Source of the DNA: an uncultured bacterium
GTDB taxonomy: Bacteria; Desulfobacterota; Deferrimicrobia; Deferrimicrobiales; Deferrimicrobiaceae
NCBI GenBank assembly: GCA_963829245.1
Contig: CAWHIM010000037.1
Location: 139,414-203,413 of the forward strand
DNA: 64,000 bases
Direction: 5' to 3'
How positions within the stretch are numbered: the stretch's first letter is position 1; every line of letters begins with the position of its first letter. The translations under genes and the position numbers were made by a program. Below, piece after piece: positions 19,854-29,184 of this stretch. Under the pieces are notes generated by a model. It was not told the DNA's origin. It searched no databases and saw only the letters and a list, made by a program, of their open reading frames with translations.

Positions 19854-21457
19854 ATGTCAGTAGCGATACCGATCGTCGATTTTTTGCAGGCCCTGGTGGG
19901 TTGGGAGAGGGGTTTTCATCTGTCGAAACAATACCGGCAGGAAAAGGCATTCAATCTGGTTCTTTCAATCGAGAAAGATCGGTTTTCTTGCGAGACACTC
20001 CGCTTAAGATCCTTTTTCCGAGAATTTGGAAAAGGCAAAGCTCCTTCAAACTATTACGATTTTCTCAAAACGTGCATACCGCTTCAATCTCTTTACGATA
20101 AGCACCCCATCAAGACGAATATCGCTTTTACAAAGATTTGGAATGTGGAACTCGGAGGCAAGGATGTCAACCATGATGATGTCAGGAAACGGTTGGCCGA
20201 TGCAATTGAGGGACGCGATGATTGGGTGCTGATCGGTGACTGCCATGTCAGGCCTATTCACTCGCAGGTCGTTCTAGGAAGCTTCGTGGGAAACAGCCTT
20301 TATGATCCCAAGAAGGATGTCAGACAACACCTATATCTGGAATACCTCCAGGCAATTTCCGATCACTGGCCTGCAGTATTCGTCATGGAGAATGTAAAAG
20401 GGCTTCTCTCCGCGACACTGGATAATCAACGAATCTTTCAGCGGATCGTTGAGGATTTGAGCGATCCGAAGGTGGCTATTAGCAGGGAAAAAAGGCCTTT
20501 CAGCAGAAAACGCACGCATACATATCGCATCCATTCCTTAGTTCGGCACAGCCTTTTTCACGTTGGAGACTTGCGTGACACATTGATTGAAGCGGAGAAC
20601 TATGGAATTCCTCAGGCCCGACATCGTGTCATATGCTTGGCATTCGCGATGACTTGGGAAATCTCTAATCCGAGGACATTGACCACACAGCCTCGTGTTC
20701 CCGTTTCGAGGGCATTGAACGGATTGCCTCTCCTGCGCAGCGGGATGACCCGAGACGAGGACAGCCCCGACTTGTGGATAAAATGCCTTCGGGGGGGTCT
20801 GAATAAAAACTGGTATCTATCGGAAATGGATTCCAAGGGGGATTCAAAACTCAAGAGTCAGTTATATAAAGTGATGAGGGAAATTGTTCCCCCTGTTCAT
20901 GGCCGTGGTGGAGAGTTTCTCGAAGAAGTGGATCCCCTCCTGAATACTATCCTTCCTGGGATGCAGACCGAAGACTCGATGGAATCTGCAACCACAGTTC
21001 TCGATCCCACATGAAGGAGGACCTCCATAGATATCTCTATGCCGCATGTTTTGCTAAAGTCCATGGTCATTCCCCGAACCTGAAGGACTTTCCTGTCGAA
21101 TTGTTGCCAAATCACGGAAACGTGCAGCTTGCCATTGAGGAAGATGGGAACTTTTCAGATCGGTTTCGAGTGCAGGTTTCAGACAGACCGGCATCAACGA
21201 TCACCTCGCATATCGCGAAGGATGGACACTACTACATCCACCCAGACCCATTCCAATGCAGAAGTCTCACGGTCCGGGAAGCCGCTAGGATACAGACGTT
21301 CCCGGACAACTATTTCTTTCTCGGCCCCCGGACTTCACAATACACCCAGATCGGAAATGCGGTTCCCCCATTGCTTGCCAGACAAATGGGTGAAAATCGT
21401 ATTGGACCTCATAAACAAAGCGGGGTTTTGAAGTTAGGGAATGGACACGGTAACTAG
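19854..21457 (+). CDS. dcm: DNA (cytosine-5)-methyltransferase. Several indels place motifs I and IV out of the main frame.
   Basis: Motif [13 protein letters not shown] (shifted frame, ~19880-19915). Motif [13 protein letters not shown] (shifted frame, ~20240-20275). [32 protein letters not shown] and [10 protein letters not shown] are in frame. Confidence 0.85.
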
Positions 21458-21892
21458 GGAGAAGCGAAGTTGGATCATGTCTCAAATAAAAGGACGCGAT
21501 ACCAAGCCGGAATTCGTCGTTCGGTCTCTGCTTCACATGATGGGTTACAGGTTTCGATTGCACAGGAAGGATCTTCCCGGTAGGTGACAAATTGTTCTAC
21601 CAAAATATGGAATCAGCATCTTCGTGAATGGGTGTTTCTGGCATCGGCACAAGGGATGCCGATTCGCCTATGAACCAAAGAGTCGGAAGCGATTCTGGTT
21701 AAAGAAATTCACCGAAAATGTCGAAAGGGACGGGAAGGGTCCAAGCGAGAAGTTAAGGCCTTAGGCTGGAGGGTAATTACAATCTGGGAGTGTCAGACTC
21801 GCTCTGTAGGCACATTATCCCGCAAGCTGGAAAAATTGGCGGCCCTTGGAAGGGATTCATGGTCCGGCCGGACAATTATCAAGAATCATTGA
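21441..21892 (+). CDS. vsr: very short patch repair endonuclease. One in-frame TGA (~21587) and one frameshift (~21745).
   Basis: [46 protein letters not shown] and, in a shifted frame, [10 protein letters not shown]. About 150 codons. Overlaps the dcm end. Confidence 0.8.
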
Positions 21893-22021
21893 GACGACCA
21901 TTTTCAAGCGAGCCCGCGGTCTCTTTTTATAGTTAAAGATTTTTCGTAAACTGGCGCCGTCATCTCGGATCGTCGCATCTCGGGTGGTGCTGAAACCCGG
22001 AAGGAGTTCGAAGAAGACTCC

Positions 22022-26177: not shown

Positions 26178-27110
26178 CCAGCGTTGGGATGAAATCGGAG
26201 TGCTGGGCGAGTCGCCTGCATTTCAGCGGGTCGACGAAATTCATCCACTGGACTTCTACCTTGGACGGGATGTTACGGGCGAGTGGGTTCTGCTGTTGCT
26301 GACAGACCAGCAACCACCTCCCTCGAAACAATACCGGGCAATCGATGTGATATCCCGCTCAAGGCATGACGGGAGATGGGCTTTAATCTTCCAGTTGAAG
26401 CGTACGGAATTGGCAAAGGTCTTTTCACATCTATGTGAAGACCTTGTCGAATCAAGCCGGGTTTTACCCGATCCCGCAAAGCCGGTCTCCTACGTGATGG
26501 CCCGTTTCGACCGCTGGCTGAAACTCCTTGAGCGGGGACAGTCACGGGGTGCTTGACCTCTACGAATTGCGAGGGTTGGTCGGGGAACTCCTATATCTCG
26601 ACGGGGTCGCGATACCAAGGTATGGCATCGAAGCGGCTGTTGCCTGTTGGGGTGGGCCCTAAGGGCGCTGATCAGGATTTCGTATCCCAGGACAAGCGAG
26701 TCGAGATCAAGACAATTAGGGAAGGAGCGGACAGGGTTCGAATATCATCCGCCCGAACAACTCGATGTCAGTGGGCATGACCTGAAACTTGCAGTGGTAG
26801 TTCTTGAAGATGTAGCTGTTGGTGGTGGGGGCGACTCATTCGATGCACTGGATCTCGTCGGGCGCTTGCGGAAGCGGATAGAGTCCGTTCCGAGTGTCGT
26901 GGAGAAGTTCGAGGTCCTCCCTTCATCACAGAAAAAATTCTGGAACGCGCGGAATATACGGCTTCCAGGTTCCTGTTTGATCGGATCCGTTTCTTCAGAG
27001 TTGATGGGAATTCCGAAAATGATCCGTTCCGGGTTGACAGCGGGAATTGGAGCAGTGTCATACGAGGTCAAGCTCGAGAACTGTCTTCGTTCGAAGAAAA
27101 TGCCGAATAG
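26164..27110 (+). CDS. PD-(D/E)XK motif protein (companion of Z1/AIPR). At least three indels.
   Basis: GPKGADQDFVSQDKRVEIKT (D...ExK) in ORF 26553, flanked by ORFs 26128 and 26647 in other frames. The position between Z1 and AIPR matches the cassette as I remember it. Confidence 0.6.
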
Positions 27111-27128
27111 ATATTGGAGTGATGACCC

Positions 27129-29184
27129 ATGGAACTTGAAGAATTCCGGAAAGAATTGCTCGAGGCGGTGCGTTCGACATCGGCGGTGGAAGAGGAATTT
27201 TCCAGGGCGGCTTTTGTTCAAGAAGCAACCGATCGGTTAAGCGATGCCGAGAACTGTCCGACTTCGAGCACTGCTATTACGAGAGGATGGTTTTCGCCGA
27301 AGAAAGATTCGCGTTGACGGTTTCGGAGTGGATGAAGCGGATAGTTCCTTCAGACTGGTGATTGCAGATTTTCGGGGAGGAGACTCAACTGAAACACTAA
27401 TCCAGACCCAAGCAGAAGGATTTTTCAGTCAGCTACAGGCATTCATCGAAGATGCGCTAAGCGAAAGGCTCTCCCAGATAATCGAAGAAAGTGCGCCCGG
27501 ATATGGACTGGCAAGTCTTATTCATCATCACCGGAACTCGATAACCAGATATCGGCTGTACTTGCTTTCTGACGCCTTCCTAAGCGGTCGGGTGAGAGAT
27601 TTTTATCCGGTAATCTGAGCGGACCCCCCGTTGAATATCACACTCTGGGATATCGCTCGATTTCATCGTGCATTTGAATCGACCGTCGGCTTGGATGAGT
27701 TGGAGGTCGACTTCACGGAATTTGTTCCTGAAGGTCTTCCTTGTCTAGAAGCCGGCCAGACAGGTGATGATTATTTCGCCTATCTGTGCGTAATTCCAGG
27801 GGAAGTCTTGGCGGAATTTACGATCGGTATGGAAGCCGTCTGCTGGAAGGGAACGTCCGATCCTTCCTGACTGTCGTGGTAAGGTCAACAGGGGATACAG
27901 GTTACCATACGAACGAAGCCGGAGATGTTCTTCGCCTACAACAACGGGATCGCCACCACGGCGACGGATGTAGAAGTTGCAAATACCCGCGCGGGAATGC
28001 GTCTAAAGCGGGCGAGCTATCTGCAGATCGTTAACGGCGGACAGACCACCGCTTCCTTGGCATAGCCAAACAGAAGGATTCGTGCCGACCTGAGCACAAT
28101 CTCCGTCCCGATGAAGTTGTCGGTTGTAAAGCCCGGAGATCCAGACCGCATGAACGACATGATCCAGTCCATCTCGCGGTACGCCAACAGCCAGAACAAG
28201 GTCAGCGATGCCGACTTCTTCTCCAACACCGTTCCATCGCGGCTCGAGGAACATTCGCGCCGGGTCTGGGCGCCGCCACAGGCGGGGCTCAGCACGAGAC
28301 GCACTGGTTCTATGAACGTGCGCGGGGACAATACCTGAACGAACAGGCGAGGCTGACCATTTCGGGGAGAAAGAGCTTCCAAAGTCAGAACCCCCGCAAC
28401 CAAGTCATCACCAAAACCGATTTCGCCAAGTTCGAGAACGCGTGGGCAATTGCCCCATGTGGTTAGCATGGGAGCCCAGAAGAATTTCATGAAGTTCGCG
28501 GAACATTCGGCGCCGTTGGAGTAAGAACGATACCGAGTTCAATGAAGGATACTTCAAGGAAGTGGTCGCCAAGGCTATGGTCTTCGAGCAGACCGAGAGA
28601 GTCGTCTCTGCCCAGCCGTGGTACACGGGCGGCTACAGGGCGAACATCGTCGCCTACACCATCTCCCGGCTCTCTCATCTGATCAAAAATCCGGTCGTAG
28701 CGAGGTGCTCGATCTCCGTCCTGTCTGGGCAAAGCAGGGGGTATGCCGGAGCCCTCGATGCCCAGCTGACGGCGGTAGCCGAAGGGGTCTTCGAGGTCAT
28801 CGTGCCTCCCGGGCGGCATCCAGAACGTTCGGAGTGGTGCAAGAAGGAACTATGTTGGCAACGGGTTCAGGCGCTTGATATTCCGATTCCGGCTGATTTC
28901 CGAAGGGAGCTTATTGACACGGATGAGGCGCGGTCTACTGCGGTGGAAGACTCAGGCAGCAGGTAATAGATACAGGAATCGATGCTCAGTCGCAGGTTGT
29001 AACTCTTGGTCCTGATTACTGGAGGCGGCTCTATGGATGGGCACCTCGGAATGCACCTTTAACGGCAGCAGAGGCAAGCGTTGTCAGTGTCGCGATGCGA
29101 ATTCCTGATCGCCTGCCCTCCGCCAAGCAGAGTGAGTGGTTACTCCGCATCAAAAATCGGCTGGAGGGAGAAGGATTCAGGTAA
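27129..29184 (+). CDS. AIPR (abortive-infection phage-resistance) family protein. Many indels.
   Basis: Collinear fragments: ORFs 27129, 27244, 27631, 27786, 28111 and 28562, plus a tail ..PSAKQSEWLLRIKNRLEGEGFR*. They include YNNGIATTA and LQIVNGGQTTASL in shifted frames. The family is assigned from memory. Confidence 0.65.

Follow-up and report, generated by a model that had tools for sequence, protein, structure and literature searches.

Introduction

The six-gene cassette studied here lies on the forward strand at positions 19854-29184 of a 64,000-nucleotide stretch of DNA (the window) from an uncultured bacterium of the Deferrimicrobiaceae (GenBank assembly GCA_963829245.1, contig CAWHIM010000037.1), and it can be compared with several systems that have already been described. 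The closest in gene content is the operon type reported by Iyer, Abhiman and Aravind in 2008 (PMC2292703), which brings together a MORC or paraMORC ATPase of the GHKL type, a superfamily-II (SF2) helicase, an E-D-ExK protein, an AIPR protein, cytosine methylases and Vsr. That description is purely computational; it finds the methylase linkage across phyla and proposes that the GHKL ATPase forms a DNA loop from the recognition site to the cleavage site. The closest in effector proteins is mzaABCDE (Mza), which is attributed to Gao et al. 2020 (Science): PMC13223576 includes it in its list of systems from that paper, and PMC9523054 calls it "validated". The MzaA protein is described as a sigma factor (PMC9523054). 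The only Mza homologues for which phage protection is reported are those of Salmonella and E. coli. The E. coli mzaABCDE genes protect 10^3-10^4-fold against T4(C) and T4(hmC), glucosylation weakens this protection, purified MzaD cuts phage DNA in vitro, and the growth of infected cultures is not arrested, whatever the multiplicity of infection (bioRxiv 10.1101/2022.06.16.496414). In a Listeria study, a methyltransferase from REBASE is mentioned as belonging to an mzaABCDE system. Searches for newer mechanistic or structural Mza literature recovered none, the matches being swamped by unrelated 'MZA' and 'mzad' strings.

The gene set of the window's cassette is identical to that of the 2008 operons, with no substantive difference. 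It has the same four effectors as mzaABCDE, in the same order (MzaB, MzaC, MzaD, MzaE), but it lacks MzaA, carries a C5-methylase and Vsr instead, and belongs by bit score to a distant clade. With type I and type III restriction-modification (R-M) systems and with class 2 DISARM it shares the coupling of a methylase to a helicase or ATPase and a nuclease; the effectors of those systems, however, belong to families unrelated to the window's, and the window has no specificity subunit, DrmA, DrmB or DrmC. A C5-methylase followed by Vsr is also the arrangement of E. coli Dcm-Vsr. The established role of such a pair is that Vsr repairs the T:G mismatches left by deamination of 5-methylcytosine. The window's pair differs from it in sitting within a mobile defence cassette and in having a longer methylase (524 residues).

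The cassette is an ordinary further example of the named Mza family. We consider it likely that it is a methylase-linked member which works like an ATP-dependent R-M system, and that the window copy appears broken largely because the assembly carries many one-base errors. An earlier account of this DNA, made from its letters alone (the sequence-only reading), had called the cassette an untested restriction or abortive-infection system. For the effector core this does not hold, as it is the named Mza, which is reported as validated; for the methylase-linked clade it may, in that we found no experiment in the literature on Mza loci linked to Dcm and Vsr.

Results

Cassette layout and an intact relative

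The six co-directional genes all lie where the sequence-only reading had placed them. Their limits were transferred from an intact relative, L051 (JGI 3300033232), the contig of protein P0001, which we found by a protein search with MzaB. Small insertions and deletions (indels) are counted against L051.

19854-21431, + strand: Dcm-type C5-cytosine DNA methyltransferase, about 524 residues after frame correction; 8 small indels
21441-21892, + strand: Vsr very-short-patch-repair endonuclease, 149 residues; 1 indel (a 2-base insertion at 21739) and a TGA stop
22022-23497, + strand: MzaB, GHKL (MORC/MutL-like) ATPase, 491 residues; 0 indels
23484-26177, + strand: MzaC, SF2 helicase with a C-terminal Z1 domain, 898 residues; 3 indels (1-base deletions at 23721, 24728 and 25956)
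26164-27110, + strand: MzaD, DUF4420 nuclease of the PD-(D/E)XK (E-D-ExK) type, 314 residues; 6 small indels
27129-29184, + strand: MzaE, AIPR family (AIPR_N and AIPR), 690 residues; 20-21 small indels

The alignment of L051 with the window spans 17678-29187 at 92.8% nucleotide identity, and all L051 genes are uninterrupted, in the order NERD-UvrD (646 residues), Dcm (524), Vsr (149), MzaB (490), MzaC (898), MzaD (314) and MzaE (690). A second relative, L052, is 81% identical and has the same gene order. The sequence-only reading had described the genes as closely packed or overlapping. The overlaps of MzaB with MzaC and of MzaC with MzaD are present in L051 as well as in the window and are real, whereas the apparent overlap of Dcm and Vsr (21441 vs 21457) is an artefact, because of a 1-base insertion at 21393, and in L051 the two genes are separated by 9 bases. 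Neither the window nor L051 has a separate restriction endonuclease gene between Dcm and MzaB-E. A scan for promoters and terminators returned fewer sites than shuffled sequence.

The divergence between window and L051 is a mosaic, with only 0.3-2% over the 3' part of Vsr, MzaB and MzaC, and 5-17% in NERD-UvrD, Dcm, the 3' part of MzaD, and MzaE. This pattern suggests that a tract was exchanged by recombination, or that the consensus is a chimera of strains that occur together.

Family assignments of the six proteins

How firmly can each protein be placed when most of the reading frames are interrupted? Part of the answer comes from the fragments as they stand. Pfam searches on them recover DNA_methylase, Vsr (2.2e-14 and 8e-07 on two fragments), HATPase_c_3 (4e-29), Z1 (3.2e-73) and DUF4420 (4.4e-15), while PADLOC matches the intact MzaB open reading frame at 1.2e-85, covering profile positions 6-487 of 500, and two MzaC fragments at 5.5e-77 and 3e-61. 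When the window genes are frame-corrected against L051 before translation, PADLOC gives MzaC at 4.8e-146, MzaD at 1.4e-11 and MzaE at 5e-87, so that the AIPR call, like the five domain calls made on fragments, agrees with what had been proposed from the letters. MzaB is followed by contiguous, co-directional homologues of MzaC, MzaD and MzaE, as in mzaABCDE. None of the cassette proteins and fragments scanned with PADLOC matches the sigma-factor-like MzaA; Dcm and Vsr occupy the upstream position.

The proteins of L051 give the same picture with uninterrupted genes. Against Pfam, DUF4420 is found at 2.8e-63, and AIPR and AIPR_N, searched on L051 alone, match its MzaE at 7e-101 and 1.6e-42. PADLOC and the NCBIfam models named 'MZA anti-phage system associated' cover nearly the full length of the four effectors, with E-values as follows.

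MzaB (L051): PADLOC 2.6e-84, NCBIfam 1.9e-101
MzaC (L051): PADLOC 2.5e-149, NCBIfam 1.5e-175
MzaD (L051): PADLOC 9.7e-16, NCBIfam 3e-28
MzaE (L051): PADLOC 1.5e-95, NCBIfam 1.8e-117

The L051 Dcm matches NCBIfam dcm at 8e-39, its best PADLOC match being DrmMII of class 2 DISARM (4.8e-90), and the L051 Vsr matches NCBIfam vsr at 2.7e-42. Cassettes of this type have been catalogued since 2008; the effector core has a name and is reported to be validated, and its models form part of standard annotation pipelines.

The motifs quoted in the sequence-only reading for the GHKL, Z1 and nuclease proteins are every one present in the window, and the catalytic motifs are kept in Dcm, MzaB, MzaC and MzaD. 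The corrected Dcm translation has no internal stop, keeps FAGPGGL, PCQ, ENV, QARHR and GNAVPP, and is 91% identical to that of L051. MzaB, with DNSISAG, DDGVGM and GRFGLGLKTSS, is 98% identical to P0001; in species-representative genomes it has no relative above 43% identity. MzaC (98.4% amino-acid identity to L051 after correction) has the Walker A motif GDVQSGKTS, the DDEAD motif in MIDDEADN, and a helicase C-terminal motif, DTLLQMGRWFGYR, which matches the DThhQXuRhFG pattern of the 2008 operons. MzaD fits the E-D-ExK protein of the same operons: its nuclease motif ADQDF...VEIKT is present in the window, and E141, D171, E180 and K182 are invariant across 6 homologues (alignment A1). The corrected MzaE aligns without gaps or stops over all 690 residues to its intact homologue P0241, and it also matches PADLOC AbiU at 3.9e-20.

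Structural comparison adds less. Against the sequences of the PDB, MzaB has weak matches to the N-terminal domains of MORC4 and PMS2, and a PDB sequence search returns no solved structure for MzaC, MzaD or MzaE, which marks a structural gap in this family. An AlphaFold2 model of an MzaE homologue (L051 15109-17181 / P0241) has a mean predicted local distance difference test (pLDDT) score of 86 and a predicted template-modelling (pTM) score of 0.53.

Conservation and linkage to the methylase

We now ask whether the cassette recurs elsewhere and, in particular, whether the methylase travels with the effectors. A scan of metagenomes yields 80 loci in which MzaB is 41-59% identical to the window's, and these were searched by tblastn with the L051 proteins. 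Wherever at least 6 kb is available after MzaB (49 loci), MzaC, MzaD and MzaE follow in order without exception (49/49). Both flanks can be seen at 26 loci; a Dcm-type methylase lies no more than 10 kb away at 25 of these, and Vsr is present at 16. In Paenibacillus and on several metagenome contigs MzaB-C-D-E are likewise contiguous and adjoin a C5-methylase, with or without Vsr. The position of the methylase varies: it is downstream of MzaE at 20 of the 25 loci and upstream of MzaB, as in the window, at 5, and it is sometimes on the opposite strand. Since most loci have it downstream, the gene order of the window is the minority arrangement of a tightly linked set. Judged by this conserved neighbourhood, a check that the sequence-only reading had proposed, the cassette is a real and widely conserved unit. 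It had also traced the association of GHKL and Z1 proteins with R-M contexts to Iyer, Abhiman and Aravind, and this attribution is correct. What we add to the 2008 description is a count: the near-exceptionless linkage of the MzaBCDE clade to a C5-methylase, with Vsr or not, supports a restriction-modification logic.

Broken reading frames in the window copy

Five of the six cassette genes are split across several reading frames, MzaB being the sole intact one, just as the sequence-only reading had said. Its suspicion of assembly error is supported by frameshifts in core genes, by the small size and window-only occurrence of the indels, and by a third-position bias in the substitutions. The 11.5-kb alignment of window and L051 contains 46 indel events, all but two of them 1-2 bases long, and a three-way alignment with L052 assigns about 38 cassette indels, essentially all of them, to the window only. 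The core of the genome provides an independent measure. Compared with L053, a contig 93% identical to it, window 1-9458 has eleven 1-base insertions, which disrupt GlnD, a DHH/CBS/poly(A)-polymerase-type enzyme, an M50 peptidase, a tRNA-synt_1b (tryptophanyl-tRNA synthetase) homologue, ScpA and ScpB-RluB. It is not plausible that a genome has lost these housekeeping genes; the core genes are frameshifted too, and therefore the assembly is error-prone. We regard assembly error as quite probably the cause of the broken frames, and apparent pseudogenes in such an assembly should not be over-interpreted.

The indels of the core are all insertions, whereas those of the cassette are mostly deletions, an asymmetry for which we have no explanation. 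Divergence from L051 was considered as the sole cause of the indels and rejected: NERD-UvrD has only 2-3 indels at 10% divergence, and in the core a divergence of 6-7% goes with about 1.2 per kb.

Proposed mechanism and alternatives

In the mechanism that we propose, Dcm would place 5-methylcytosine on host sequence as a mark of self, as its family and its near-universal linkage suggest, and Vsr would repair the T:G mismatches produced by deamination, limiting the mutational cost of the mark. MzaB would act as a GHKL clamp or looping ATPase and MzaC as an SF2/Z1 translocase, the two together delivering MzaD to unmarked DNA, and MzaD would be the PD-(D/E)XK nuclease that attacks incoming DNA without the mark. 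MzaE would be part of the effector and may be a sensor or specificity component. Carrying over to the window's clade the cleavage by E. coli MzaD and the protection without growth arrest is an argument by analogy, and the gating of restriction by methylation is put forward here as a hypothesis for this clade rather than as a known property of the family.

Several observations weigh against this reading of the cassette, some on the side of its mechanism and some, to which we return below, on the side of its broken frames. In the validated Mza system methylation is not needed to tell self from non-self, because MzaA is found there instead of a methylase. The L051 proteins fall well short of the NCBIfam equivalog cut-offs, with 340 of 850 bits for MzaB, 585 of 1500 for MzaC, 99 of 420 for MzaD and 393 of 1050 for MzaE, or roughly 25-40% of the cut-offs, so they do not qualify as equivalogs; by these profile scores, the window's clade is homologous over its full length to the enterobacterial systems behind the models but distant from them. 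Because the scores are below these thresholds and MzaA is missing, it is conceivable that the clade with Dcm and Vsr differs mechanistically from validated Mza, being a methylation-gated, ATP-dependent restriction system of a so far uncharacterised type, in which MzaE or MzaD reads 5-methylcytosine and MzaB and MzaC form a looping-translocation motor; we hold this as a tentative possibility. A Foldseek search of the MzaE-homologue model against the PDB finds no structure at E <0.9. On this model the AIPR fold appears to be without a solved relative, and, because a confident model has no fold match in the PDB, the activity of AIPR cannot be inferred from it. The name of the family, taken from abortive-infection genes, and the AbiU match of MzaE point towards abortive infection, in which AIPR and the nuclease would kill or arrest the infected cell and Dcm and Vsr would have no part in discrimination, as would also suit a validated Mza that has no methylase. 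We think this unlikely. The absence of growth arrest in E. coli and the cutting of phage DNA by MzaD argue against the abortive-infection alternative of the sequence-only reading for the homologue that has been tested, and a Dcm-type methylase at nearly all clade loci would be difficult to account for if no function joined it to the effectors. That linkage also bears on whether we are looking at two independent modules, a solitary Dcm-Vsr pair or type II remnant beside a self-contained MzaBCDE. The methylase does change position and strand between loci, and Dcm diverges faster than its neighbours (68% identity for the L051-L052 pair, compared with 75-85% for MzaB-E), as independent modules would; but co-occurrence has persisted across MzaB homologues as distant as those in our scan, Iyer et al. 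(PMC2292703) saw the same linkage across phyla, and no separate restriction endonuclease gene lies between Dcm and MzaB-E in the window or in L051. Independence of the two parts seems to us quite improbable.

The remaining alternative accepts the family assignment and takes the window copy for a dead relic, with Dcm, Vsr, MzaD and MzaE truly pseudogenised and MzaB alone intact. In its favour is the distribution of the indels: Dcm, MzaD and MzaE have 5-10 of them per kb, compared with about 1.2 in the core and 0-1.1 in MzaB and MzaC. This 4-8-fold excess over the core or MzaB/MzaC is without explanation, and the indel-poor centre at 21.6-25.8 kb coincides with the stretch that is just 0.3-2% diverged from L051. 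In MzaD, moreover, the substitutions on the window branch look less constrained (12/9/14 by codon position; 23 nonsynonymous to 12 synonymous, vs 10 to 16 on the L051 branch), and in Vsr a TGA at 21585-21587 stands in place of the conserved Pro of the 'PD' motif, with the following Asp reading as Gln (TGA-CAA in the window's active-site stretch vs CCA-GAY in L051 and L052). We rejected this stop as decisive proof of decay, since a -2/+2 pair of indels is an equally good reading of the 9-nucleotide stretch. Set against the relic are the frameshifts in essential and core genes of the same window, the 1-2-base size of nearly all indels, and the absence from the cassette of the large deletions typical of pseudogene decay; once frames are corrected, all proteins except Vsr are full length and free of stops. 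MzaE, the gene with most indels, differs from L051 at 58/23/179 first, second and third codon positions, and the substitutions on the window branch (27/8/61) have a third-position bias like that on the branch of the intact lineage (29/13/92). Some 20 real indels in this gene are doubtful, because many more unconstrained substitutions would be expected alongside them than a mere 8 at second positions. A wholly dead cassette is, in our judgement, a rather poor bet, and real decay of part of it likewise has only a minor chance of being true. For further work on the likely methylase-linked, restriction-like Mza system, the intact L051 is a better template than the window copy, and how the methylation is read and what AIPR does are questions for the whole family.

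Genomic context and neighbouring genes

The sequence-only reading had placed the cassette in a block of lower guanine-plus-cytosine (GC) content within a tRNA-linked island, and both features are there. The GC fraction is 0.48-0.57 in the cassette, compared with 0.65-0.70 in the core at 1-11 kb. A tRNA-Met gene lies at 12985-13061, and its 3' 57 nucleotides are repeated at 14871-14927, 1.85 kb downstream, with 86% identity. Between the two copies lies a short segment that carries a flavin reductase gene (13873-14421), and in L051 47 nucleotides of the same tRNA end adjoin an integrase. These features suggest serial integration at the tRNA-Met gene; the far end of the island falls outside the window. 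Just upstream of the tRNA, at 11475-12113 on the minus strand, is an integrase fragment with only the N-terminal SAM-like domain, which corresponds to part of the uninterrupted integrase that L053 has at this position. Further upstream, about 970 bases between the ScpB-RluB and DHDPS genes (9459-10430) have no counterpart in the syntenic L053.

On the other side of the cassette, about 7.3 kb of the window (29188-36488) are absent from L051, where a PhdYeFM-antitoxin region equivalent to window 36489-36992 follows about 200 bases after MzaE. This insert contains a RecQ-like helicase fragment (34507-35277) and a metallophosphoesterase fragment (33354-33806); its remaining open-reading-frame pieces have no Pfam match. 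Directly upstream of Dcm, at 17885-19819 on the plus strand, is a gene with NERD and UvrD-like helicase domains, which holds the same position in L051 and L052; of the 26 more distant Mza loci for which both flanks can be seen, none has it beside the cassette. A PADLOC search with its L051 orthologue returns the candidate model C3a187 'NERD+UvrD' at 8.9e-76, and the gene may be a separate defence gene.

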